In this document: positions 2,838-48,564 of the stretch, piece by piece | How positions within the stretch are numbered: the first letter of the stretch is position 1 | Layout of the letters: every line of letters starts with the position of its first letter | Virus record (IMG/VR): IMGVR_UViG_3300006353_000001 | DNA: 57,845 nucleotides | Source of the DNA: a virus | Reading direction: 5' to 3' (one strand) | The notes under the pieces: generated by a model | Told to the model about the DNA's origin: nothing | Seen by the model: only the letters and a program-made list of their open reading frames with translations | Databases searched by the model: none | Made by a program: the position numbers and the translations under genes

Positions 2838-5800
2838 CTCGATCGCCAATGCCCAGTCTGGCTTCGCCAGACTGACTCAAACCGTCAATACTGGCACGAC
2901 CGCCTTCGTCAATTACGGCGGTCGTGGCATTGCCAGCCTCACCCGTGGATTCGATCAACTGACGTCCATCGTCGCGCATTCTCTGGACATTCTGAAAGTC
3001 CTGGGCGCCGGCATTGAATTCGTCTTCACGGCGATCGTCAGAGAACTGGACAAACTCCAGGGCTTCAACGCTATCATGTCGGTGACGGCAGGCAGTGCCG
3101 CCACTGCCTCCGACGCTTACAATTTTCTGCGCACCACAGCTGACAAACTGGGTGTGCAGTTCGACGCACTGTCAGGCAACTACGCCAAGTTGGTCGCGGC
3201 CATCCCTGAAGGCGCTGACCGTTTGCAGATCGCTGAGAAAGCGTTCCTTGGCATCGCTCAGGCGGCCAGAACCCTGCACTCCAGCAATCAGGACACTCAA
3301 CTCATGTTCTACGCGATCACCCAGATCGCGTCCAAGGGCGTGGTGTCGATGGAAGAACTTCGCCGGCAGTTGGGTGAGAAGTTGCCCGGTGCGTTGCAGA
3401 TCGCCGCTCGGTCACTGAACACCACCGTCGAAGAGCTCACGAAGGCTATCGGCAAAGGCTTGGTGGACTCCGCCAAGTTCCTCCCATTCTTCGGCGACGA
3501 ACTGATTCGCACGTTCAGTGGATCGGCCGAAAAGGCCTCTCAGAGCGTGTCGGCGTCAATCAATCGCCTGACTAATGTGTGGATCGACTTCGTCAAGCAA
3601 ATTCTGGATTCAGGTGCCGGCCAGTCCATCATCGGGGTGTTCGATGCACTGCGTGAGAAGCTCAGTGACCCGTACCTCATCGAACGATTCGCGGCCCTGA
3701 TCAAGTACCTGGCCGACAAATTCACTGAGTTCATCACGAACCTTACTCAGGAAGACATCCGGAACGGCTTCGACACCTTCACCAAGGGCGTGGAATTGGC
3801 CATCAACATCACCGGCAAACTCATCGAAATCTTCACCTGGGTCATCAATCATGCTCCTGCAGTTGGTGCTGCAATCGGTGCCGTGGCGGGTGCTACCGCA
3901 GGCTTGGTGGCTGGTCCCGTTGGGGCTGCTGTGGGCGGAGTTGTTGGTGCTGCTGGTGGACTGGCTGCTGGATATGCATTGAGTCCGTCGTCCGCTGACG
4001 TGGCTCAGAGACAGCAGTCAGATCAGAACGCCCGTCAAAATCAGGAGCAGCGTCGCCTCGACGCGGAGAACCTCAAGTACACCCAACTCATCCCACTGCT
4101 TCAGCAGTTCAAGGGTCTGAAGGGTCTGGATCAGGTGGAGCCTCTGCTGAAGCAGGAACGGCTGACTCAGAAGACGTTGGACGTCGTCGCCAATATCCTG
4201 ACAGATCCGAAGTACAAGACTGAGCAGGATCGCACGAAGGCGTTGCAGGACTTCTCCAAGTACGGGATCGAGCTCGGTCCACGAGGCACGTTGAAAGATG
4301 TGCTGGGTGGCAAGGGCAAGCCCGACAAGGAGGCTCAGAAGCTCCAGAACACGATGAATCGTGGGTTCGGCCTAGATGCCAACTTCTACGACGAGTGGAA
4401 TCGCCTGACTACCCTGTTCAAGACCGGCCGGATCAATCTCGACGAACTCACTGCGGCACAGGATCGTCTGTTGGACAAGCAGCCGATCATCGCCGAATTC
4501 AATCGTCAGAAGGCCAAGAGCAATGAGGAGGATGGTAAGGGTCTGGATCTGTTGATCAAACAGATCACCGTCAAGGACAAGGCCAATCGCGGGTTGGATG
4601 ATGAGATTCGTCTCGCCGGGCTGCGCAATGACGAGTTGTTCGTCGAGCAAGGTCTGACGAAGATCATCAACGATTACGCGGATGCGGGCATTCCGAAAAA
4701 GGAGATCGATGCATTACTGCCGGCCCTGCGTCAGAAGCTCGAACTGCTGCGTGAGACTCAGCAGATCACTCAGGCCGAGAATGCCATCCTAGACGCCACG
4801 GTCGACAAGTACAAGGCTCAGATCATTCAGCAAAAGGCTATGAAGGCGTTGATCGCTGATCCGACTTCTGGCTTCACGAAGACCGATGCCACAGACCTCA
4901 TCACGACTCAGGATCAGAATTTTGCAGGTTCTGCGGAGTGGATCGCCGCTCAACAACGCAACCTGCAGAACTATTACGCCTATGTACAAGGCCTTCGAAA
5001 CGCTGATCTGATCAGTGAGCAATCTGCTTACCAGGCCAAGTCAGCGGCGGCAGCTGCGTTCAACACCCAACTGAACGACGCGTACGTCAAGGCCGCCGAT
5101 CTGCGGTTGAAGGCCGGATCCACAGACATCATCGATGGCATGATCGCCAGTCTGGGTCGGCTGGCGTCCGGATTCACGAACTTCTTTGCAGGTGCCACCA
5201 CTGCTTTCGGCAATTTCTTCACATCATTCACCGACGGATTCGCCAACAGTGTCGGCCGGGCTATCGTGTACTCTGAGGACTTCGGCGACGCGTTGAAGAA
5301 CGTGGCTCGTCAGGGTATCGCTGAGCTCATCTCAGCCATGGTCAAGTTGGGCATCCAATGGGTCGCCAACGCGGTGTTGGGACAGTCCATTGCGGCGGCC
5401 ACCTTGGCTACTACCACGACAGCAAGTCTGACTGCGGCGACCGCAATGGCCGCAGCCTGGGCACCTGCCGCAGCAGCTGTCTCATTGGCGACGTTCGGAG
5501 CCAACGCCGCCGGAGCCATTGCAGGTATCTCAGCCACATACGCCACCACGGAGGCCTTGGCTCTCACCAGCTTTGCAGGATTCCAATCAGGCGGCTACAC
5601 TGGAAACGGCGGCCTCTCTGATATTGCCGGCGTGGTGCATGGGAAGGAATTTGTGGTCAATGCCGATGCGACCGCCCGCAACCGCGCCACACTCGAAGCG
5701 ATGAATCATGGTCGGGACATAGGCGGTGGCATCAACGTCGTCATCCAAGACTTCACCTCAGGTGACAAGACTTGGGAGGTTGAACAGTTGTCAGAATCTG

Positions 5801-13070: not shown

Positions 13071-13107
13071 TTTGGGTGTGTCAGCAGCGCCTGTGACCCG
13101 CAGGCTT

Positions 13108-13138
13108 GAGTGCAGAATGAAAATTCTGCACTCTTTTT
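13108..13138 (+). terminator. Rho-independent terminator ending the structural/lysis operon
   Basis: GAGTGCAGAAT-gaaa-ATTCTGCACTC followed by TTTTT. The stem is a perfect 11 bp with a GAAA tetraloop. Confidence 0.85.
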
Positions 13139-13175
13139 AACTTTCCGGACTAGTAAATGCACGCGGTGAGCGTCG

Positions 13176-13250
13176 TCCGGGACTCCGTACAATACGTCCG
13201 GGAGTCCCGGAGTAGTACAACGTATAAACACCAAGTAGACGGCTCCCGGA
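13176..13250 (+). repeat. Composite palindrome element, copy A (half-site TCCGGGA 13176; palindrome TCCGGGAGTCCCGGA 13197..13211; half-site TCCCGGA 13244..13250)
   Basis: The same three-part element with 21-nt and 46-47-nt offsets recurs at 29966, 40767 and 45139. All copies are intergenic. Confidence 0.8.
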
Positions 13251-13283
13251 AAAACTATATCTGATCAGAGCCTCGAACGTTTT

Positions 13284-22079: not shown

Positions 22080-23687
22080 GTGAAATCTCTTCTGCTGACT
22101 CTCGGCCACAACAGCTCCGCCATCCTGATCGAGGACGGCGAGATCAAGTGGGGTTACGAGACCGAACGAGTGACTGGCCTGAAGTCCGATAGCCAGTTCC
22201 CCTCGCCCGTACTGGACAAGTACCTCATGTCCAAGCCAGACATCGCCTACGTCACGCACTGGGCGCCGGACGGGTTGCTGTCCAGCATGAGCTACAAGCA
22301 TTGGAAGCCCGAATACCTCGAGGACGTGCCGATCCGCACACTCGACGTGATGAAGGGCAGGTCCCACCACGACACTCACATGGCGGCCGCCCGCTGCTAC
22401 GCAGGGCCGAGGTTCCCCATCGACCGCACTTACGGGTTCGTGATCGACGGATTCGGCACGATGGGCGAGCACTTCAGCGTGTACGAGATCACCGCCGAAG
22501 GTCAGCGACTGGTCGAGCGGGTGCATGGCTATGACACTAGCCTTGGCCTGTGGTATCAGTACGCCACGGCGTTCATGAGCCTGAAGATGCATGAGGACGA
22601 GTATAAGCTGCTCGGCTACGAGGCTCACGTCGACCCGATGATGGCGCGCAAGCTGGACGATCACGCTGAGGTCGAAGCTCTGCAATGGATCAGCCGCATG
22701 CACGAGTCCGTGTATGGTAGTAAGTACGATCCGATGTATGATCTGAACGCTCTCGCACACGTGAAAGAGCGCGTGTTCAATCACCTCAGTGAGCTGTGCA
22801 AGCTCTTCGGCATCGACGAGGTGATCTCTGTGCGGTCGAGATCCATCATCTCGTACTACGTGCAGCGGGTGCTCGAGCAGGTTGTCCGTGCGAAGGTCGA
22901 GAAGTGGAGGCCCAGGAACGTGCTGTTGTCGGGTGGGTGCTTCTACAACGTCAAGCTCGGCAAGAACGTGATAGAGATGGTCGATGGTCAGACCTGTGTG
23001 TACCCGCTCGCCGGCGACCAGGGCAATGCCATTGGCCTGTACTTCATGGACCACCCTGAATTTGTGTTCCCGGCCGACCTCAATTGGGGGAAGCGTGAGC
23101 TGAAAGACGTGGGACAGGTCCCCAACATGTACGTGGTGGACGAGGTGGAGGCGGCGAACCTCATCCGCCTGATGCTGAACCACTTCGGCTACGTGAACCT
23201 CGTGCGTGGCGCGATGGAATTCGGCCCCCGTGCTCTGTGCAACACCAGCACCCTTGCTCTGCCGACCAAGGACAACGTCGACATCATCAACTCCGCCAAC
23301 GACCGCAACACCATCATGCCGATGGCGCCGGTCATGACGATGTCTCAGTACAAGAATCTGTACGAAAACACGAAACATTTGTGGCGCTCGTACAAGCACA
23401 TGATCGTGGCCATGGAGCACACGGAGCACCCTCTGCCAGAGCTGGCCGGCGTCACGCACGAATACTTCCACCCCTACCACCACCACACCGGTCGACCGCA
23501 GGTGGTGGAGGACGCTGACAGACTCATGTTCGGGCTGCTCAACCAGTTCGGCCCTCTCATCAACACCTCCTTCAACTATCACGGTATGCCTATCGCGCTG
23601 GGCATGGAGAGCATCATCAAGAATCACATGATGCAGTATCAGCGCCAGAAGAATTTCTCAACTGTGGTGATCAGAAATGACAAGTGA
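22080..23687 (+). CDS. NodU/CmcH/TobZ-type O-carbamoyltransferase (Kae1-like N-domain + YrdC-like C-domain)
   Basis: 535 aa. GTG start 4 nt after SD GGAGA. Motifs LGHNSSAILIEDG, GRSHHDTHMAAA, GGCFYNVKLG, GDQGNAIG, then GAMEFGPRALCNTS, IMPMAPVM and INTSFNYHGMPIA. Confidence 0.85.
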   Translation: MKSLLLTLGHNSSAILIEDGEIKWGYETERVTGLKSDSQFPSPVLDKYLMSKPDIAYVTHWAPDGLLSSMSYKHWKPEYLEDVPIRTLDVMKGRSHHDTHMAAARCYAGPRFPIDRTYGFVIDGFGTMGEHFSVYEITAEGQRLVERVHGYDTSLGLWYQYATAFMSLKMHEDEYKLLGYEAHVDPMMARKLDDHAEVEALQWISRMHESVYGSKYDPMYDLNALAHVKERVFNHLSELCKLFGIDEVISVRSRSIISYYVQRVLEQVVRAKVEKWRPRNVLLSGGCFYNVKLGKNVIEMVDGQTCVYPLAGDQGNAIGLYFMDHPEFVFPADLNWGKRELKDVGQVPNMYVVDEVEAANLIRLMLNHFGYVNLVRGAMEFGPRALCNTSTLALPTKDNVDIINSANDRNTIMPMAPVMTMSQYKNLYENTKHLWRSYKHMIVAMEHTEHPLPELAGVTHEYFHPYHHHTGRPQVVEDADRLMFGLLNQFGPLINTSFNYHGMPIALGMESIIKNHMMQYQRQKNFSTVVIRNDK

Positions 23688-24102
23688 CAACATTCATGTG
23701 CCCGACTTCTCGCAAGACATCGTCGGCAAAATCTTCGACTTCAATGAGCAGGTCATCGGTACCGGCGATGTGGACTTCAACTGCCTCACGCAGAAGCAGT
23801 TCGACTGGACCGTGAAGTTCGTGAAGGAGGAGTTGACGGAATTCTCCGAAGCTTTCGCCGAGCAGAACATGATCAAGATGGTGGACGGGGTCCTCGATCT
23901 GATCTACGGTGCGATGGGCACGCTCAAGAAGATGGGGCTCACCCGTGAGCACGTCTATGCCTGTATGAACGCCATCCACGCCGCCAACATGACCAAGAAG
24001 AAGGGGGTCGTGGCGTCACGTGGCAGTGACGAGGACGCCGCGAAGCCAGTCGACTTCGTGCCGCCGGACGAAGCCATCGGACAGATCCTCTTTCTGGAGT
24101 AA
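23677..24102 (+). CDS. MazG-like all-alpha nucleoside triphosphate pyrophosphohydrolase
   Basis: 141 aa. Motifs EELTEFSEAF...MVDGVLDLIYGAMGTL...IHAANMTKK are typical of phage MazG/PRA-PH-like NTP-PPases. Confidence 0.65.
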   Translation: MTSDNIHVPDFSQDIVGKIFDFNEQVIGTGDVDFNCLTQKQFDWTVKFVKEELTEFSEAFAEQNMIKMVDGVLDLIYGAMGTLKKMGLTREHVYACMNAIHAANMTKKKGVVASRGSDEDAAKPVDFVPPDEAIGQILFLE

Positions 24103-24105
24103 ATC

Positions 24106-24669
24106 ATGAGACTCATCCTCGAGGGACCTGACAACGCCGGCAAGACTACGCTCGCCCGAAAACTGTGCGACGAGTTGGGCGCTGCACTGATCTACTTCCA
24201 CCCGGGCGGCAAGCCCGCCGACCAGGTGGCCGAGTTCGAGTGTATGCAGGAGCAGTTCAACAAGCTCCGCGACAACTCCAACATCCTGATGGATCGGATC
24301 ACTCCGATCAGTCAGCGAATCTACAACCCCGACCCGGTGGCCGACCACTACCGGGCGGAGGCCCTGACCCGGATGATGGTGTTCGCGCCGGTCATCGTGT
24401 ACTGCCGACCCAGCACTGACCTCCTCCTGCGAGTGCAGGACTTCAAGTGGCGGCCGGGGGAGACCGAGGAGCACAAGCAGAAGATCATCGACGGCCAGCA
24501 CACCTTCGTGCTGCGATACGACGATCTGATGCGGAAGATCCCCCACATCGACTACGACTGGGAGCATGAGCTAGCTCCCATGCAGTACACGACCATCCTG
24601 CAAGGACTGATGGGCCGTCGTGACATGGAGGCGAAGCTCCACACGCTCATGAACCTGAGGGGCATGTAA
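24106..24669 (+). CDS. P-loop nucleotide (dNMP/thymidylate-like) kinase
   Basis: 187 aa. The N-terminal MRLILEGPDNAGKTTLARKL matches the thymidylate-kinase-type P-loop context. Substrate unknown. Confidence 0.55.
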   Translation: MRLILEGPDNAGKTTLARKLCDELGAALIYFHPGGKPADQVAEFECMQEQFNKLRDNSNILMDRITPISQRIYNPDPVADHYRAEALTRMMVFAPVIVYCRPSTDLLLRVQDFKWRPGETEEHKQKIIDGQHTFVLRYDDLMRKIPHIDYDWEHELAPMQYTTILQGLMGRRDMEAKLHTLMNLRGM

Positions 24670-25487
24670 TGCGGACCCTCCAAGGCTCCAACAACCTCCA
24701 CACCATCATGCTGGCGTACGGCACCTGCATGAAGGCCAAGGAGGTCGAGATCCGTGGCCAGAAGTGCCGCAACGTCCGTGACATGGCGCTCCTGCTCGAC
24801 GCTCGAAAGTGTCCGGTCACTGCCTTCAGGGCTAGGAATCTCAACCTCACCTACGCCAAGAAGGAGATGCTGTGGTACCTCGGCGCAGACCCGAAGGACG
24901 ACTCGATCGAGAAGCATGCCACGATGTGGAAGAAGCTGAAGCAGGCGGACGGCTCCTACTTCAGCAACTACGGGCAATACATCTTCGACGACGCGAATCA
25001 GCCCAGTCAATTCGTCTACGTGATCAATACGTTGGCCGAGGACCCTCAGTCCCGCCGTGCGAGCATGGTCCTGCTGCAGCCGAAGCACCTCTTCCGTGAG
25101 AACACAGATGTCGTGTGCACGTACGCTCTGCAGTTCACGATCGAGGACAGCATGCTCCACATGACCGTGCTGATGCGGAGCAACGACATCGTGTTCGGGT
25201 TCACGAACGACGCGTTCTGCTTCTGGAACATCATGGCATTGGTGTACGCCGTGCTGCTCAAGAAGTACCCGACCCTGGTGATGGGCACCTACACCCACTT
25301 CGCTGGCAGCATGCACGTCTACGAGCGGCATTACAAGATGCTGAACGAGATCGTCGGCGAGCCCAACGGCGGTTCGTTCAGAGTGGACGTGCCGTTCCCG
25401 ACGTCCGAAGAGGCCGTCGCCCTCGTCAAGTCCAATGGCAGGGAGGGCGACGGTGAATACACCAAATGGCTCAAGGCCGAGTCGTGA
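24669..25487 (+). CDS. Thymidylate-synthase-fold pyrimidine hydroxymethylase, T4 gp42 (dCMP hydroxymethylase)-like
   Basis: 272 aa. Motifs EMLWYL, SNYGQYIF, DPQSRRASMVLLQP, VVC(150)TYALQF, MRSNDIVFGFTND(181) and MHVYERHY. Cys codon at 25116..25118; Asp codon at 25209..25211, which is nucleophile +31. Confidence 0.75.
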   Translation: MRTLQGSNNLHTIMLAYGTCMKAKEVEIRGQKCRNVRDMALLLDARKCPVTAFRARNLNLTYAKKEMLWYLGADPKDDSIEKHATMWKKLKQADGSYFSNYGQYIFDDANQPSQFVYVINTLAEDPQSRRASMVLLQPKHLFRENTDVVCTYALQFTIEDSMLHMTVLMRSNDIVFGFTNDAFCFWNIMALVYAVLLKKYPTLVMGTYTHFAGSMHVYERHYKMLNEIVGEPNGGSFRVDVPFPTSEEAVALVKSNGREGDGEYTKWLKAES

Positions 25488-25914
25488 CGCCTACTTCGTG
25501 CAGATGACCGCGCTCGTCGCGCAACGCGCGACGTGTGCTCGGCGCCAGGTGGGGTGCGTGCTGGTGAACGAGCAGGGTCACGTGATGGCCACAGGCTACA
25601 ACGGTGTCTGTCACGGCGCTGTCCACTGCATCGACGTGCCATGCCCAGGCGCCAAGTTCCCGTCTGGCCAGGGGCTGCACCTGTGCGAGGCGATCCACGC
25701 GGAGCAGAATGCTCTGTTGCAGTGTAGGGACATCAACGAGATACACACTGCCTACGTCACGTCCAGCCCATGCATCCACTGTGTCAGGCTGCTGTGCAAC
25801 ACCGGCGTCAAGCGCGTCGTCTTCTCTGAGGTCTACCCACATGCCGAATCCGAACGAGTCGCCAGAAACCATGGTATTGAATGGATCCACCACGCCGATC
25901 CACAAGTGCTTTGA
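25435..25914 (+). CDS. dCMP deaminase
   Basis: 159 aa. Motifs RATCARRQVGCVLV, CEAIHAEQNAL and SPCIHCVRLL (HAE + PCxxC zinc motifs). The start overlaps the hydroxymethylase by 53 nt. Confidence 0.85.
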   Translation: MAGRATVNTPNGSRPSRDAYFVQMTALVAQRATCARRQVGCVLVNEQGHVMATGYNGVCHGAVHCIDVPCPGAKFPSGQGLHLCEAIHAEQNALLQCRDINEIHTAYVTSSPCIHCVRLLCNTGVKRVVFSEVYPHAESERVARNHGIEWIHHADPQVL

Positions 25915-28916: not shown

Positions 28917-29258
28917 GTGGCACTGATCCACAATCGCAAGATTCCAGTCCACGCGATGGCCTTTGCGGAGATGTGCCTGCTCCTGAATCAGGACGGGCAC
29001 ACCCGCATCCAACTGCGTGACAAGCTCGGTCTGAATCAGGTTACGATCAACAATTGGATAACATTGCTGATCCGTCGTAAGCTGATCTATATCTGTGATT
29101 GGGTGCCGCCGATCCGTGGCAACTTCACGCCCGTATGGGCTTGGGGTTACTGTGTCAAGGACGTGCCTAAGCCGCCTCCGATGACCAAGACTCAGTACCA
29201 GCAGAGGTATGTCGCTAAGAAACGCCGAACGTTCGGCTTAACTGGAGTAAGTGCATGA
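28917..29258 (+). CDS. Winged-helix / HTH DNA-binding protein (candidate regulator)
   Basis: 113 aa. GTG start after SD GGGAGG. IQLRDKLGLNQVTINNWITLLIRRKLI has a helix-turn-helix pattern. The C-terminus is basic. Confidence 0.45.
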   Translation: MALIHNRKIPVHAMAFAEMCLLLNQDGHTRIQLRDKLGLNQVTINNWITLLIRRKLIYICDWVPPIRGNFTPVWAWGYCVKDVPKPPPMTKTQYQQRYVAKKRRTFGLTGVSA

Positions 29259-29518
29259 ACAATACCGACGACGGAAAGACCGTAGCACCCAACGACAACG
29301 CGTCCGGTCAGGCTATGGAGTGTCCTGGCGACGGGTCTTTTGACAAGGATGGCAAGCCCATCCGCTACCGCCACGCCTGGTCGTGGGTGTGGGCCGACCA
29401 CCCCACCGACAAGACGTTGAGGGTATGGACCGACCGAATGCGGTGCGACAACTGTCGGCAGGAGAAGCAGTCCAGTCGGGGAGAGGGTGACGTGGAGGTC
29501 ACGAGGGTGCTGCTATGA
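29255..29518 (+). CDS. Hypothetical protein (87 aa)
   Basis: ORF track with an ATGA overlap on the upstream gene. Confidence 0.5.
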   Translation: MNNTDDGKTVAPNDNASGQAMECPGDGSFDKDGKPIRYRHAWSWVWADHPTDKTLRVWTDRMRCDNCRQEKQSSRGEGDVEVTRVLL

Positions 29519-29961
29519 CACACTGGGTCCTCGGATTCGCCTTCGACGACCTGGGCAGGGTGGCGCTCATTCGCAAGAACAAGCCTGATTGGCAACACGG
29601 CCGTTGGAACGGCATCGGAGGCAGAGTTGAACAAGAAGCATGCTTCGACGCTATGGAGCGCGAGTTTCGTGAAGAGACCGGAGTCACGATCTCCGCCGAG
29701 CGTTGGCGACTCGTCGGCGACATCCAAGTCCCCACTGGCAGGGTCGACGTCTTCACCTACACCGGGCCGGAGATTCGACATTGCAAGACTGTGGAAGCGG
29801 AGCCCGTGACCCTCTTCCTGATCGAAGCTGTGCGGAAGCACCTCACTTGCATCGAGAACGTCGTGGCACTGATCGAGCTGTGTCAGATCAAGCCGGATGC
29901 CACTGCGGCGCCGACTCCGCACTTTACGTTGAAGTACGAGCTCGGAACGTCGCACAGGTGA
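29515..29961 (+). CDS. Nudix hydrolase
   Basis: 148 aa with a complete Nudix box, GGRVEQEACFDAMEREFREETGV (GX5EX7REUXEEXGU). Confidence 0.8.
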   Translation: MTHWVLGFAFDDLGRVALIRKNKPDWQHGRWNGIGGRVEQEACFDAMEREFREETGVTISAERWRLVGDIQVPTGRVDVFTYTGPEIRHCKTVEAEPVTLFLIEAVRKHLTCIENVVALIELCQIKPDATAAPTPHFTLKYELGTSHR

Positions 29962-29965
29962 CGCG

Positions 29966-30040
29966 TCCGGGACGTTCGGTGATACGTCCGGGAGTCCCGG
30001 ACGTATAGTACGTATAAACACCAAGTAGACGGCTCCCGGA
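29966..30040 (+). repeat. Composite palindrome element, copy B (TCCGGGA 29966; TCCGGGAGTCCCGGA 29987..30001; TCCCGGA 30034..30040)
   Basis: Same 21-nt and 47-nt offsets as copy A. The spacer CGTATAAACACCAAGTAGACGGC is identical to copy A. Confidence 0.8.
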
Positions 30041-30152: not shown

Positions 30153-30327
30153 ATGTTCAAAGACGCGCATTCTCCAGCCATGACGGGGCAGTGGTGCAAA
30201 AAGCCGGGGTCCGGGCGCGTCTTGCACACCTCACGGGTGTGATTGCATATGCCGGACCTCGGCGCCCCTCAATTATCCGGGAGCCGGGTGGCCCTCCCTC
30301 GACGAGCCACTAACATTGGAGAATGTT
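30153..30327 (+). promoter_or_regulatory. Long structured 5' leader (about 175 nt) with uORF
   Basis: A 9-bp long-range stem AAGACGCGC (30160..30168) / GCGCGTCTT (30215..30223). A hairpin CACACC-tcacg-GGTGTG (30225..30241). A TCCGGGAGCC box at 30277..30286. Confidence 0.4.
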
Positions 30328-40766: not shown

Positions 40767-40841
40767 TCCGGGACGTCCGGTGACGCGTCCGGGACTCCCG
40801 GAGTAGTAGCTCGTATATTCACCAAGTAGGCGGCTCCCGGA
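40767..40841 (+). repeat. Composite palindrome element, copy C (TCCGGGA 40767; TCCGGGACTCCCGGA 40788..40802; TCCCGGA 40835..40841)
   Basis: Offsets of 21 and 47 nt, identical to copies A and B. Confidence 0.8.
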
Positions 40842-45094: not shown

Positions 45095-45138
45095 AATTCG
45101 TCGTTAGTTCGTACGTTAGTACTACACTGTAGAGCGCG

Positions 45139-45212
45139 TCCGGGACGTTATAAGTGTGCTCCGGGACTCCCGGAGAGCGCTCGTTCAGAACTATATTACG
45201 ACGGCTCCCGGA
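45139..45212 (+). repeat. Composite palindrome element, copy D (TCCGGGA 45139; TCCGGGACTCCCGGA 45160..45174; TCCCGGA 45206..45212)
   Basis: Offsets of 21 and 46 nt. The spacer is more diverged than in copies A-C. Confidence 0.75.
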
Positions 45213-46326: not shown

Positions 46327-46366
46327 CGAGTGTCCATTGCGGACACTCGCACGCGCCCCTCGTGCG
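46327..46366 (+). terminator. Two adjacent GC-rich hairpins after the last + strand early gene (possible terminator, no U-tract)
   Basis: CGAGTGTCC-attgc-GGACACTCG (46327..46349) and CGCACG-cgcccct-CGTGCG (46348..46366). Confidence 0.4.
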
Positions 46367-46375
46367 CGAACCTAT

Positions 46376-46448
46376 GTTAGCTACCGGGGGAATCATGACC
46401 TATGGGCTCGATCCGGGGTTAGCTACTGGGGAAACCATGGCCTAAGGG
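46376..46448. repeat. Two 31-bp imperfect direct repeats (iteron-like)
   Basis: GTTAGCTACCGGGGGAATCATGACCTATGGG (46376..46406) and GTTAGCTACTGGGGAAACCATGGCCTAAGGG (46418..46448). 26 of 31 positions are identical. Confidence 0.75.
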
Positions 46449-46544: not shown

Positions 46545-46770
46545 CACCAAAAGTAGTAAATCTTGGAGCCTTAAGTTATTATCCGGATTGAACTTTATGT
46601 ATTTACCTATTATATACTACATAAGTTAGTATTATTATTCAAATATATAAAATCCATGATCAATCAATGGTCTCTAATTGGTATTATTATATATTTATTT
46701 AGTAGCTCCCCGAACGAAAATAGTACCGGAGTGGTAATCTCAGTTTCCCGTTATAAATTAATAACTTAAG
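46545..46770. other. Strongly AT-rich non-coding island with short TAAGTTA / TATTATTAT repeats (candidate DNA-unwinding element / origin or packaging region)
   Basis: The composition switches visibly from the GC-rich genome background. There is no ORF of convincing length. Confidence 0.6.
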
Positions 46771-46772
46771 AC

Positions 46773-46814
46773 TCCCGGACGTTTACGGGAGCCGGGTAAA
46801 CCTTTGGGTAAACC
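46773..46814. repeat. Partial palindrome-element boxes (ACTCCCGGA, CGGGAGCCGGG) plus tandem GGGTAAACC x2
   Basis: TCCCGGA at 46773..46779, CGGGAGCC at 46786..46793, and GGGTAAACC at 46794..46802 and 46806..46814. Confidence 0.6.
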
Positions 46815-47011
46815 TAATGACGCAAAACATCTCAGGTGCTAACGGGCCGTCACAAACGGCACAGTTCTACGTATTCAGTGACACAAACGGCACAAAAATG
46901 GCGTTGGTTTCACGATCCCTGTACATTGAACCTCGCACATCGAACGATGCGGGCCCTCGAGGCACGTCGTGCCACGCCCAAGTTGCCCCTGCTCAAAGTA
47001 CGTTAGACCAT

Positions 47012-47096: not shown

Positions 47097-47573
47097 ATGA
47101 ACGCTAAGGAAATGGAAGCCACGATCGTGGCCCTGAGGGCCCGGATCGATGAATTGGAACGAAGCACGACGCGCGGTGCACTGGACGAGCTCGCAGCCCA
47201 ACTGCGGACCGTGGACGAGGCCGGAGCCTCCCGGGTCGAGGAACTCAGGGCGATGATCGAGGAGCACCGCACGTCGCACGACGCACTGAAGACGAAGGTC
47301 GACGAAATGAGCGCCGCGTTGGCTGACATCATGCCGAAAGTGCTCGCACGGAACGCGTCGGCTGCGGTGAAGCGCAATATGGTCGACGCCGACGCCCTGA
47401 GGGTCATCGTGGGGGACCTCAAGAACATGCCGCACAAGGAGGCGGCCGAGGCGGCGGGCATCACGTACGCCCAAGTGTACTCGTGCAGGCTCGAGTACAC
47501 CTTCAAACACATCCACAAGCAACTGAGGGATTCCGGCCAGACGAACCCGTGGGCCAAGGACGCGAAGAAGTAG
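47097..47573 (+). CDS. Coiled-coil protein with C-terminal HTH-like domain (paralog of 48241..48564)
   Basis: ORF track 47091..47573; ATG 47097 has better SD spacing. The C-terminus HKEAAEAAGITYAQVYSCRLEYTFKHIHKQL...NPWAKD matches HKDAASALGLTYGQVYSCRLGYTFKTIHKEV...NPWIKA of the minus-strand gene. Confidence 0.6.
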   Translation: MNAKEMEATIVALRARIDELERSTTRGALDELAAQLRTVDEAGASRVEELRAMIEEHRTSHDALKTKVDEMSAALADIMPKVLARNASAAVKRNMVDADALRVIVGDLKNMPHKEAAEAAGITYAQVYSCRLEYTFKHIHKQLRDSGQTNPWAKDAKK

Positions 47574-48240: not shown

Positions 48241-48564
48241 TTAAGCCTTGATCCAGGGGTTGGGGTTGGCTGAGGAGAAGACCTCCTTGTGGATGGTCTT
48301 GAAGGTGTAACCGAGACGGCAAGAGTAGACTTGTCCGTAGGTGAGGCCGAGTGCCGAAGCCGCGTCCTTGTGCTTCTTCGAAGCGTGTTCCCCGATCAGG
48401 ATGCTTCGCGCGTCGTCGTCGGTCATCTCCTTGTCGGAGGTCTTCGGTGTGGTCTTGGCCTGGAGTTCCGCGACCTGAGCCTGAAGGCTGAGGATGGCGA
48501 GGACCATCTCCTTGTTGGTCATGGAGCGGACGGCTTCAACTTGGGTGGTTTCAACTTGGGACAT
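48241..48564 (-). CDS. Coiled-coil protein with C-terminal HTH-like domain (candidate repressor/regulator; paralog of 47097..47573)
   Basis: ORF track, 107 aa. SD GGAGA. Its promoter is embraced by an 11-bp inverted repeat. Confidence 0.6.
   Translation of the reverse strand: MSQVETTQVEAVRSMTNKEMVLAILSLQAQVAELQAKTTPKTSDKEMTDDDARSILIGEHASKKHKDAASALGLTYGQVYSCRLGYTFKTIHKEVFSSANPNPWIKA

Follow-up and report, generated by a model that had tools for sequence, protein, structure and literature searches.

What reads a composite, G+C-rich repeat that recurs in the intergenic gaps of a phage genome, and in which form is it read: as duplex DNA, as a folded single strand, or as RNA? The window, by which is meant the whole stretch of 57,845 nucleotides that was analyzed, represents the complete, circularly assembled genome (57.8 kb) of a siphophage. 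No close DNA relative of this genome was found among cultured or deposited phages, and for its terminase and PrimPol the protein relatives, in Xp15 and Acinetobacter phages, are all distant. It carries twelve near-identical promoters of the sigma-70 type (family promoters) and one intrinsic terminator. The original prediction described four copies of a repeat arranged as half-site, full site and inverted half-site. All four are present as exact sequence matches, co-oriented on the plus strand (Table 1), and each is built from four 7-base TCCGGGA words in the layout →→←←, giving a module of 75–130 bp. The order is H1 (TCCGGGA), a 14 nt spacer, H2 and H3 (TCCGGGA and TCCCGGA, separated by a single G or C), a second spacer of 31–32 nt, and finally H4 (TCCCGGA), which is preceded by CGGC. 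The measured steps bear out the proposed geometry, with 21 nt from the start of H1 to the start of H2 in 4/4 copies, and 47 nt from the start of the palindrome to that of H4 in copies A, B and C (46 nt in copy D). Spacer 2 contains a conserved motif, cGTA-WWA, in which C, G, T and A occupy spacer positions 10–13 and are followed by W-rich sequence. The full conserved unit comprises the four oriented heptamers, CGGC, the spacer motif and ~40 nt upstream, and for copy A it extends from ~13141 to 13263.

Table 1. Coordinates of the element copies, partial sites and neighboring signals in the window.
Feature	Position	Strand	Details
Copy A	13176..13250	+	H1 13176-13182, H2-G-H3 13197-13211, CGGC 13240-13243, H4 13244-13250
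Copy B	29966..30040	+	H1 29966-29972, H2-G-H3 29987-30001, H4 30034-30040
Copy C	40767..40841	+	H1 40767-40773, H2-C-H3 40788-40802, H4 40835-40841
Copy D	45139..45212	+	H1 45139-45145, H2-C-H3 45160-45174, H4 45206-45212; spacer 31 nt
Terminator	13108..13140	+	11-bp stem, GAAA loop, T-run; closes late operon 36 nt before copy A
Family promoter P13295	13295..13324	+	gATCAAA..TGTACA-N18-TACAAT; drives replication module
Isolated inverted extended H4 box	30276..30286	-	exact 11-mer CGGCTCCCGGA; 5' leader downstream of P30118
Site E remnant (fifth site)	46773..46794		TCCCGGA, 6 nt, inverted box TACGGGAGCCG with one mismatch

Within the window, the palindrome TCCGGGANTCCCGGA has four exact matches and none with one or two mismatches, against a chance expectation of 0.46 even when two mismatches are allowed. 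Sixteen of the 22 TCCGGGA/TCCCGGA heptamers lie inside the four copies, and the extended H4 box, CGGCTCCCGGA, occurs five times exactly, where ~0.03 would be expected from length alone. No avoidance of CCGG or related words was seen elsewhere in the genome.

All four full copies are intergenic, as had been claimed. Copy A sits between the late terminator and promoter P13295, while copy B begins 4 nt past the stop of a NUDIX gene (29515-29961). Copy C is internal to the operon started by P40103, where 7 nt separate it from the upstream stop (40759) and 26 nt from the following ATG (40868), and copy D follows its upstream stop by 44 nt as the gene was called, or by 7 nt if a longer overlapping ORF is used. 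From H4 to the -35 box of the next family promoter there are 44 nt (copy A), 77 nt (copy B, to P30118) and 23 nt (copy D, to P45236); copy C is not at a promoter, and no family promoter was found after it. Because this distance varies, the family promoters have good -35 (TGTACA) and -10 boxes, and 9 of the 12 lack the element, a classical activator site at a fixed position, one of the roles proposed earlier, is not supported. Activator-dependent phage promoters of the Mor/C, Ogr or MotA type keep their activator site at a set distance from the -10 and have no -35. A rho-independent terminator is not supported either. The terminator scan flagged 13108-13140 as the sole canonical intrinsic terminator of the genome and did not flag the element; what comes after H3 and H4 there is non-T, and in copies A and B it is A-rich.

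Two partial boxes predicted at 30277..30286 and 46773..46793 are both real. The first, together with H4 of copy B, brackets P30118, the two lying 236 bp apart. The second is what remains of a fifth site (E), and full elements are found at the equivalent position in the related contigs L003 (8846-8920) and L018; the spacers of copy D are nearest to those of the site-E copy L003b. The remnant abuts an AT-rich cassette, with boxes flanking the cassette at 46565-46775, and isolated boxes and single heptamers cluster around the conserved AT-rich early control region. The minimum of the cumulative GC skew falls near 46.9 kb.

A scan of related genomes, which the original prediction had proposed as a check, found the element to be present in relatives: an ortholog of copy A lies upstream of the PrimPol gene in 21/21 examined relatives with a PrimPol at least 63% identical. 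Copy A adjoins the PrimPol-helicase gene in all clades. In every ortholog and in outgroup-1, it follows a strong intrinsic terminator and precedes the next promoter, with 44-51 nt between H4 and the promoter among copy A orthologs. Diverged genomes have orthologs of sites A, B, C, D and E (for example, copy B with L013:4115, and copy C with L011:8127 and L065), and gene content varies around site C. In an alignment of 31 distinct copies, drawn from genomes of 42–66% GC, little or no variation is seen in the CCGG cores and in H4, the central bases are G,G,C,C throughout, and the columns of the spacers approach randomness. Spacer lengths are likewise fixed, spacer 1 being 14 nt in 26/26 copies that have H1, and spacer 2 being 31-32 nt in 31/31 copies. 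Exact CGGCTCCCGGA boxes outside full elements number nine, against ~0.2 expected, and occur in both orientations. The orientation of the element equals gene direction at 5/6 independent sites, and a perfectly conserved copy in L009 is inverted relative to its flanking genes (antisense to its operon), as well as to the other copies of its contig.

In more distant relatives, the same gap is filled by rearranged or re-worded versions of the element. In L026, each of the four heptamers is altered at the equivalent position (TCCGGAA, TCCGGAA, TTCCGGG, TACCGGA) in a background that is otherwise like that of L005, and a scan for a TCCGGAA lineage returned only the L026 contig and three unrelated matches. 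The distant L075 has a →→←← array of another heptamer (AAGCGCT twice, AGCGCTT twice), in which the 21-bp step recurs; beyond these four sites, AGCGCT occurs nowhere else in 6.5 kb. In L018, the outer pair T:A is changed to G:C, with H1 and H4 keeping T and A, while in outgroup-1 the two central heptamers are swapped (G:C to C:G) and the gap between them is widened from 1 to 5 nt. No analogous composite with another word was found in L068-L070. In one genome, two loci whose flanks are unrelated share a 129-bp, element-containing block with 100% identity. In contig L003, the left flank of one of these loci is joined to the right flank of the other, a junction that may be an assembly chimera across the repeat. 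Among 185,579 species genomes no prophage copy was found; the one true match came from a phage contig in the bin of an archaeal MAG, and seven others were chance matches. A full-text literature search for the heptamer gave nothing but incidental primer-type matches. Judged by the comparison of relatives, the element is a trait of the phage family.

Recognition by protein at the level of duplex DNA is the best supported reading, because it is sequence rather than structure that is conserved, the spacings are fixed, copy A keeps its place between terminator and promoter, and boxes occur in both orientations. The dimeric protein site proposed originally is therefore upheld as regards DNA-level recognition, but a simple dimer is too simple, since the unit consists of four heptamers, CGGC, the spacer motif and ~40 nt upstream, homogenized as a 129-bp block. 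In our estimate, there is an even chance that a putative sequence-specific, oligomeric DNA-binding protein, probably phage-encoded, recognizes the element as an array in double-stranded DNA. Binding by a protein, its oligomeric state and its regulatory outcome are what we infer from the anatomy, conservation and distribution described above. Each TCCGGGA(S) heptamer would be one oriented binding unit, with the back-to-back H2-N-H3 pair nucleating binding, H1 placed exactly two helical turns (21 bp) upstream, and H4, in its extended form, 38-39 bp downstream over a bendable, A/T-rich spacer that carries cGTA-WWA. Extra subunits could then capture H1 and H4, so that ~75-130 bp would be folded into one nucleoprotein complex. 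Such complexes would stand at transcription-unit junctions, with single boxes near the early control region and around P30118. They may serve as boundary or operator complexes that block or modulate transcription arriving from upstream and tune the adjacent promoter during the infection programme, possibly via looping between boxes.

Also counted in favor of a protein-bound array are the lack of significant covariation (see below), the inverted L009 copy, the homogenized block, the coordinated change of all four words in L026 and the re-worded layout in L075. Other observations fit it less well. Some changes keep complementarity specifically in the central pair (L018, outgroup-1), and the swap with its 5-nt gap in outgroup-1 is easy for a hairpin but awkward for a rigid protein dimer. 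The H3-H4 distance of 38-39 bp (~3.7 turns) does not correspond to a whole number of helical turns, and a symmetric role in DNA needs no co-orientation with genes of the kind seen at 5/6 sites. The candidate binders are a further difficulty. Three genes with helix-turn-helix (HTH) proteins had been suggested, of which 28917-29258 shows no DNA-binding signal. The other two, 47097-47573 and 48241-48564, are paralogous, share a small helical (HTH-like) head that does not vary, and are the only recognizable DNA-binding candidates; the family has no Pfam, PDB-sequence or significant fold match, the fold matches of the head to sigma region 4 and LuxR-type HTH domains being non-significant (E > 1). 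Because this family is also found in L069, where the heptamer is absent from 15.9 kb, its link to the element is weak.

The palindrome had been said to be incapable of a useful hairpin, which is wrong: a 6-bp stem with a 3-nt loop is predicted (-9.6 kcal/mol as RNA, -5.9 as DNA). It is conceivable, though unlikely, that the element is a signal in single-stranded or supercoiled DNA, in which the complementary heptamers would fold into a central hairpin of 6-7 bp, and H1 and H4 would pair in addition or instead. The fold would be read by a replication-type enzyme, for example as a PrimPol-helicase loading or priming signal, an origin component or a strand-specific nick site. The strict G,G,C,C center is what pairing demands, the central-pair changes in L018 and L026 are compensatory, and the potential to fold survives rearrangement: the 6-bp stem and 3-nt loop of the ingroup are replaced in outgroup-1 by TCCCGGA-N5-TCCGGGA (7-bp stem, 5-nt loop), and in L075 by TTAAGCGCT-N5-AGCGCTTAA with a 9-bp stem. 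A role in replication would also suit the presence of 4/4 window copies on one strand, the constant position of the syntenic copy beside the PrimPol-helicase/PolA module, and the clustering of boxes by the AT-rich, iteron-flanked cassette, which could be an origin and lies close to the GC-skew minimum. However, the covariation is statistically non-significant, the stems are short for cruciform extrusion, and pairing of H1 with H4 would enclose a 14 x 32-nt internal loop with no consistent spacer pairing. Isolated single boxes have no nearby pairing partner, the L009 copy is inverted against the others on its contig, and no nickase or HUH gene was recognized in the gene calls. The PrimPol C-terminus, a possible reader, gave an AlphaFold model too poor for use (pLDDT 44.7).

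Folding bears equally on the proposal, which we regard as quite improbable, that the element acts as RNA. A polycistronic mRNA would fold either in nested form (H1:H4 and H2:H3) or as an H-type pseudoknot (H1:H3 and H2:H4), and the fold would direct processing, affect stability, or act as a switch for antitermination or attenuation; the heptamers would not vary because all four must pair interchangeably. Copy C and the copies in L004, L011, L018, L040 and L042 directly precede a ribosome-binding site and ATG, and so must be transcribed through. The short distances of copies B, C and (by the longer ORF) D from upstream stop codons and the co-orientation with genes at 5/6 independent sites agree with this, as do predicted folds that are moderately more stable than those of shuffled sequences (z-scores -0.7 to -3.4). 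Both strands fold equally well, however, and no significant covariation was found under the nested or the pseudoknot model: the RNAalifold covariation term was +0.1, and two pairs showed a double change, with observed values inside the shuffle and slide controls. Among mismatches at the variable pair, G:T and A:C were about equally common (4 vs 3), which argues against strand-specific (RNA) selection. A purely structural, covarying RNA thus lacks support. Rfam 15 gave no match at the gathering score over the whole window, the best conserved copy has, in all orthologs, a strong terminator before it and the next promoter after it, the L009 copy runs antisense to its operon, isolated boxes point either way, and loop lengths are rigid while loop sequences drift, which is unusual for RNA. 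Spacer-to-spacer pairing was considered and rejected, the short complementarities falling in different registers between copies, and extension of the H1:H4, H1:H3 and H2:H4 stems into the flanks was inconsistent, with only copy C gaining six pairs.

A similarly slim prospect is that the element is itself a promoter dependent on an activator or an alternative sigma factor. The H2/H3 palindrome would be the factor site ~31 bp upstream of the start, cGTA-WWA would serve as a -10-like element, and H4 would fall in the leader at ~+11. The spacer motif keeps a fixed distance of 16 nt from GGGAC of H2, resembling ECF-type GGAAC-N16-CGT (a weak likeness, and our own reading), and in copy C and the same five contigs named above genes directly follow H4 without a family promoter; the non-significant sigma region 4/LuxR-type matches of the 47097-family head point the same way. 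Yet most copies have A or G instead of T at position 6 of the supposed -10, the base after GGGA is G in one third of them, and a promoter has no need of H1, H3 and H4. The L009 copy would fire into the end of a convergent gene, and neither a sigma nor a Mor/C-type gene was found by Pfam or PHROGs. Least probable is a MITE-like repeat or recombinase site spread among module junctions mainly for mosaic exchange: the identical 129-bp block at two loci, the L003 junction, the placement of copies at module junctions and the variable gene content of site C would suit it, but sites A-E are orthologous across diverged genomes, the flanks show no target-site duplications, no transposase or recombinase gene was recognized, the L003 junction is possibly an assembly chimera, and words and spacings show so strong a purifying pattern that some function other than mobility is indicated.

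The preferred reading, an array bound by protein, invites comparison with known systems. In cluster A mycobacteriophages, stoperators bound by the L5-type immunity repressor are short words repeated in short intergenic spaces and near promoters; they are mostly oriented with transcription and are thought to stop or modulate it at unit boundaries (PMC9283540). Each is a single, asymmetric 13-mer bound by a monomer; a genome has over 20 of them, and the phages are temperate and their repressor is known (PMC9283540). The element resembles them in that a short specific word recurs in intergenic gaps and near promoters, and in orientation to the extent that 5/6 sites are co-oriented, whereas the L009 copy is inverted and isolated boxes point both ways. 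Unlike stoperators, it takes the form of four to five composite arrays, each with four pseudo-palindromic heptamers at set, asymmetric distances, and in place of more than 20 sites the genome has four full copies, one remnant and one isolated box, all intergenic. No integrase or repressor family was recognized in the gene calls or by Pfam/PHROGs. The ribbon-helix-helix (RHH) protein omega (ParB) of plasmid pSM19035 binds 7-bp heptads in both orientations, cooperatively and with one dimer per heptad; a →→←← set of four is a functional unit, and the sites overlap promoter regions (PMC9499535). These heptads (WATCACW) must be contiguous and gapless, in runs of 7-10 (PMC9499535). The element shares the direct and inverted 7-bp units and the →→←← set of four, but its heptamers are spaced by 14, 1 and 31-32 nt and its word is G+C-rich. 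No RHH family was found by Pfam in any called gene, and small ORFs of unclassified fold remain. A ParA-type gene was likewise not seen in gene calls or by Pfam/PHROGs, leaving the centromere-like role suggested originally without support.

Origins of the lambda or P4 type and P1 parS combine short, mixed-orientation boxes at fixed, asymmetric distances with a bendable A/T-rich segment in one nucleoprotein complex; in P4, initiator sites lie at two separated loci (ori and crr) and are bound by the C-terminal domain of a primase-helicase. The element likewise has mixed-orientation boxes around an A/T-rich spacer, and copy A always adjoins the PrimPol-helicase gene; it differs in its four to five dispersed copies, in the lack of ParA/ParB, and in having no IHF consensus in the spacer. 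Sigma-54 and IHF consensus sequences were sought by inspection in the upstream box and spacer 2, and rejected. Among signals read as single strands or nicks, the promoters of the phage N4 virion RNA polymerase are DNA hairpins with a 5-7-bp stem and a 3-nt loop, and the localized nick sites of phiKMV-, T5- and M6-like phages number a handful of same-strand sites per lytic genome, those of the phiKMV-like phages having a G+C-rich consensus that contains CTCCGG. A short DNA stem with a 3-nt loop, few same-strand sites and a G+C-rich word are common to the element, but it departs from them in consensus and in composite layout, and no gene for a nickase or for an RNA polymerase of the N4 type was recognized.

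Most likely, then, the element represents a known kind of device, the operator or boundary repeats of phages, in a new form. It is rather improbable that it belongs to an undescribed class of phage chromosome boundary module, in which a four-word →→←← array with a two-helical-turn step would be bound by one oligomeric factor, its word re-coded (TCCGGGA to TCCGGAA to AAGCGCT) with architecture and position kept; such a module would act as a protein insulator that replaces terminators, or as a folded-strand loading signal for the PrimPol-helicase. To name the reader would be to learn how a lytic phage orders its programme with a dozen promoters and one terminator, and the reader and the element together would supply a compact, orthogonal DNA-protein pair. 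The re-coding of words within a kept architecture (L026, L075), if confirmed, would be a clean natural example of co-evolution between site and reader. The clade has almost no annotated regulators, and the element, which marks transcription-unit junctions, is its clearest cis-acting signal. The clade is large and consists of uncultured siphophages represented in many metagenomes, with ~100 PrimPol clusters at 90% identity and a wide GC range.

The window is a rotation of a circularly assembled metagenomic contig of 57,866 bp (ENA ERZ27257642, with gene calls), and belongs to a siphovirus-type phage with almost every gene on one strand; its terminase and that of Xanthomonas phage Xp15 share 46% identity. 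No close DNA relatives were found among deposited phages, nor any prophage copies in species genomes. The original prediction described four copies (A–D) of a composite element, and a sequence search returned exactly the same coordinates, all on the + strand. Each copy consists of a heptamer H1 (TCCGGGA), a 14 nt spacer, the 15-bp palindrome TCCGGGA(G/C)TCCCGGA (H2-N-H3), a second spacer and the heptamer H4 (TCCCGGA), with CGGC always directly 5' of H4. The start of H1 is 21 nt from that of the palindrome in each window copy, and the palindrome start is 47 nt from that of H4 (46 nt in copy D). Four exact matches to the palindrome occur in the window, where just 0.46 would be expected even with two mismatches allowed, and 16 of the 22 heptamers are parts of copies A–D. 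As the heptamer is TCC-N-GGA, its orientation is set by the central base alone, and this reads G, G, C, C from H1 to H4 without exception among the copies (→→←←).

Twelve promoters of one family (consensus gATCAAA-N4-TGTACA-N17/18-TAcAAT) were found on the + strand, and are named here by start coordinate. This single family drives early, replication and structural genes, each member with an upstream box containing GATC (gATCaaa). Against at least 12 same-strand promoters, there is one canonical intrinsic terminator in the 57.8-kb window (13108-13140), at the end of the operon for late structural and lysis genes. From the T-run of this terminator it is 36 nt downstream to copy A, which in turn is 44 nt 5' of the -35 of P13295, the promoter driving the replication module (PrimPol-helicase, PolA and others). 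For copies B and D, the preceding gene is the last of its operon, and P30118 and P45236 lie 77 and 23 nt downstream, respectively. Copy C is within the P40103 operon, with a stop codon 7 nt upstream and the next ATG 26 nt downstream. Promoters 26422, 40103, 45236 and 47023 share a conserved spacer, ACGGC(T/A)GCC(A/G)G, directly 3' of the -35; it matches the extended H4 box ACGGCTCCCGGA at 8-10 of 12 positions, a likeness that may be coincidental because relatives in which heptamers are scarce or absent also retain this spacer.

Coordinates of the element copies, promoters and associated features (L-numbers denote loci of relatives)
Feature	Location	Strand	Remark
Copy A, H1 (TCCGGGA)	start 13176	+	sequence search of window
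Copy B, H1 (TCCGGGA)	start 29966	+	sequence search of window
Copy C, H1 (TCCGGGA)	start 40767	+	sequence search of window
Copy D, H1 (TCCGGGA)	start 45139	+	sequence search of window
Family promoters	13295, 15824, 26422, 30118, 32565, 40103, 41275, 43493, 45236, 47023, 49036, 55638	+	
Family promoter	48740	-	
Isolated CGGCTCCCGGA box	30276-30286		window; brackets P30118 together with copy B
AT-rich cassette	window 46565-46815; L003 8315-8590; L009 3976-4443; L068 ~740-1200; L070 ~5040-5330		
Identical 129-bp block	L013 10342-10470 = L006 8177-8305		contig IMGVR_UViG_3300047478_000188
Carbamoyltransferase, PRA-PH/MazG-like pyrophosphatase, thymidylate-synthase homolog, dCMP deaminase cluster	22080-26000		
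Genes of this cluster	22080-23687, 23677-24102, 24669-25487, 25453-25914		

In IMG/VR, pattern scans that each omitted one part of the element, a different one each time, picked up this composite in about 12 viral contigs, along with a few chance matches. Loci were also fetched by PrimPol homology, with the element not presupposed, and in 21 of 21 relatives with PrimPol at least 63% identical the gap from the late terminator to the PrimPol promoter contains the element. At 58-61% identity (L039-L042) the same gap holds a slightly altered form that lacks H1. Thirty-one distinct copies were aligned and curated; fixed or almost fixed among them are the CGGC, the central bases and the CCGG core of each of H2, H3 and H4. 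The first spacer is 14 nt in all 26 copies with H1, and the second is 31-32 nt in all 31. The second spacer keeps the motif order cGTA, W-rich, A-Y-A, A-a-G-n-T, CGGC, and other spacer columns are near random across genomes with a GC content of 42% to 66%. The conserved stretch continues outside the element for about 40 nt on the upstream side (with the boxes GTACGAAC, TWWAGTA and GCACAC) and about 13 nt on the downstream side.

By synteny there are five orthologous sites, A to E, the first four of which are present in the window. Site E, upstream of the 47097 gene, is only a remnant there (46773-46794), and full copies are found in L003 and L018. The palindrome of L018 has its outer pair changed from T:A to G:C, with T and A kept in H1 and H4, and in L026 the equivalent position is altered in all four heptamers (TCCGGAA, TCCGGAA, TTCCGGG, TACCGGA) against an otherwise unchanged background. 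One genome carries, at two loci with unrelated flanks, a 129-bp block that spans exactly the conserved unit and is 100% identical between them. In L003 (1-1200; from a different sample) the left flank of one of these loci is joined to the right flank of the other, which reflects recombination via the repeat or else a chimeric assembly.

There is perhaps an even chance that the element is a recognition array in duplex DNA for an oligomeric, sequence-specific protein, which would bind the element and form boundary or operator complexes where transcription units meet. The fixed 21-bp step from H1 to H2, two helical turns, fits protein-duplex geometry. It is unlikely that the element is a DNA signal for replication, priming or nicking that acts as a hairpin or folded single strand; its changes keep complementarity and the element constantly adjoins PrimPol, but the stems are short and isolated boxes occur without a pairing partner. 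The palindrome had been thought incapable of forming a useful hairpin, yet it folds with a 6-bp stem and a 3-nt loop (predicted -9.6 kcal/mol as RNA, -5.9 as DNA), and full elements fold somewhat better than shuffles, with both strands about equal.

Four findings speak against a function within mRNA. A strong terminator precedes, and the next promoter follows, the most conserved copy (site A) in every ortholog. The perfectly conserved copy in L009 is inverted relative to the flanking genes, and there a beta-helix depolymerase-like gene on the opposite strand ends 9 nt from H4. Exact CGGCTCCCGGA boxes outside full elements number nine in the family loci (about 0.2 expected) and occur in either orientation. 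Finally, these boxes and lone heptamers gather at the early control region described below. As to base pairing, covariation was not significant for either the nested model (H1:H4 plus H2:H3) or the pseudoknot model (H1:H3 plus H2:H4); shuffle and slide controls gave ranges that include the observed values, and the RNAalifold covariation term was +0.1. Two pairs of the central palindrome hold most of the variation: the loop-closing pair 6:10 (G:C in 22 copies, A:T in one as a double change, G:T in four, A:C in three and C:C in one) and the outer pair 1:15 (T:A in 26, G:C in one as a double change, T:G in one and T:C in three). G:T is about as frequent as A:C, so nothing points to selection acting on a single transcribed strand. 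An RNA element appears improbable, given the position of copy A and the inversion in L009, even though transcription must cross copies B, C and D. A factor-dependent promoter inside the element has a similarly slim chance; the GGGAC-N16-CGTA geometry is fixed, but the -10 is poor and H1, H3 and H4 would be superfluous. A mobile or recombination site, to which the duplicated 129-bp block might point, is highly improbable, as the sites are orthologous and show no target-site duplication, and no recombinase gene was recognized.

More distant relatives retain parts of the arrangement. In outgroup-1 (PrimPol 40-41% identical; L072, L073) the gap holds TCCCGGA-N5-TCCGGGA, 33 nt and (CGGC)TCCCGGA, without H1, the 33-nt spacer carrying the cGTATTAA motif as in closer relatives. 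The central heptamers are thus swapped and their gap widened from 1 to 5 nt, and they are still exact inverted repeats; because the word is pseudo-palindromic, the swap amounts to one G:C to C:G flip. In outgroup-2 (PrimPol 36-37%; L074, L075) there are no TCCSGGA heptamers in the terminator-to-promoter gap. All four AGCGCT words of the 6.5-kb locus L075 (PrimPol 37%; 1.1 expected in the locus) fall in a 96-bp stretch of this gap (1560-1656), in the order AAGCGCT, AAGCGCT, AGCGCTT, AGCGCTT, again →→←←, although this is one instance only. The start-to-start steps are 58, 11 and 21 bp, compared with 21, 8 and 39 bp in the closer relatives. From these gaps, architecture and position outlast the word, as co-evolution with a recognizing protein predicts; since hairpin potential is also kept, this alone does not separate the two DNA-level models.

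The early control region near which the isolated boxes and single heptamers are concentrated is a conserved ~200-bp AT-rich cassette (GC ~29%) between perfect 15-17-bp inverted repeats, TTAAGTTATTA(ATT) and (AATT)AATAACTTAAG, with flanking direct repeats (iterons) GGGTAAACC. Its sequence is maintained across genomes of 42-66% GC, just 5' of a 47097-family gene. The cassette may be an origin of replication or a control region for early genes, and the cumulative GC skew minimum is near 46.9 kb. The long intergenic region before the cassette contains two tandem 42-nt units that share 76% identity (GCGCGAACCTATGTTAGCTACCGGGGGAATCATGACCTATGG; 46364-46447).

The products gp47097-47573 (+) and gp48241-48564 (-), originally proposed as binders, are divergently transcribed paralogs with a common, almost invariant C-terminal helical domain of ~65 aa (…GLTYAQVYSCRLEYTFKHVHK…; consensus …KRNMTDADAxRVLTGDLKDxxHKEAAExxGLTYAQVYSCRLEYTFKHVHK…), preceded in gp47097 by a highly variable single helix of 90 residues (AlphaFold pLDDT 90.8). 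Searches of Pfam and of PDB sequences found no relative of them, and fold matches were not significant, the top ones (all E >1) being sigma-region-4, LuxR and resolvase HTH domains, and with at least 100 homolog clusters in metagenomes they are a new HTH-like family. Co-occurrence with the element does not hold up: contig L070 has a 42%-identical homolog and a perfect element, whereas in L069, whose homolog is 50% identical and keeps this head, heptamers are absent from 15.9 kb including the control region. L068 has a single heptamer, and the same phage has a perfect copy A (L071). Common to these control regions are the AT-rich cassette, iterons and GCACATCG-like repeats, which are more likely targets of the family than the element. 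The C-terminus of the PrimPol-helicase is a positional candidate only, its model (pLDDT 44.7) being unusable.

The architecture resembles multi-box nucleoprotein sites such as P1 parS and P4 ori/crr. The nearest functional analogue is the L5-type stoperator, a repressor site scattered at gene-block boundaries (PMC9283540), but stoperators occur more than 20 times as one asymmetric 13-mer, unlike the element. The nearest formal analogue is found in the heptad arrays of omega and other RHH proteins, where →→←← is a functional unit (PMC9499535), but omega-type heptads are contiguous and those of the element are not. No cognate repressor, RHH or ParA gene was recognized in the window. Lacking defining features of each family, the element is therefore a member of none, though it may work alike. 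It is a real cis element, strongly conserved across the clade, whose fixed architecture of four words is unusual; it is new in form and of a general kind already known (phage operator/boundary repeats).

Between the last late gene and the terminator is a conserved non-coding stretch (13075-13107) with a hairpin, GCCTG-TGACCC-CAGGC (13089-13105), for which L001, L002 and L037 have compensatory variants (GCCG-TGACCC-CGGC); it may be an RNA element at the late-transcript 3' end. Copies outside site A have, in the place of that site's late terminator hairpin, a palindrome based on GTTCGTACGAAC about 25-35 nt 5' of H1, a perfect 16 bp in L070 (1560-1575) and also seen in L009 (~2388-2402) and the window (45103-45117). 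Lastly, the cluster from carbamoyltransferase to dCMP deaminase is kept in all relatives and outgroups, which suggests that the phage DNA contains a pyrimidine that is non-canonical or hypermodified; NUDIX, HhH-GPD glycosylase and Rv2179c-like exonuclease genes are found elsewhere in the genome.
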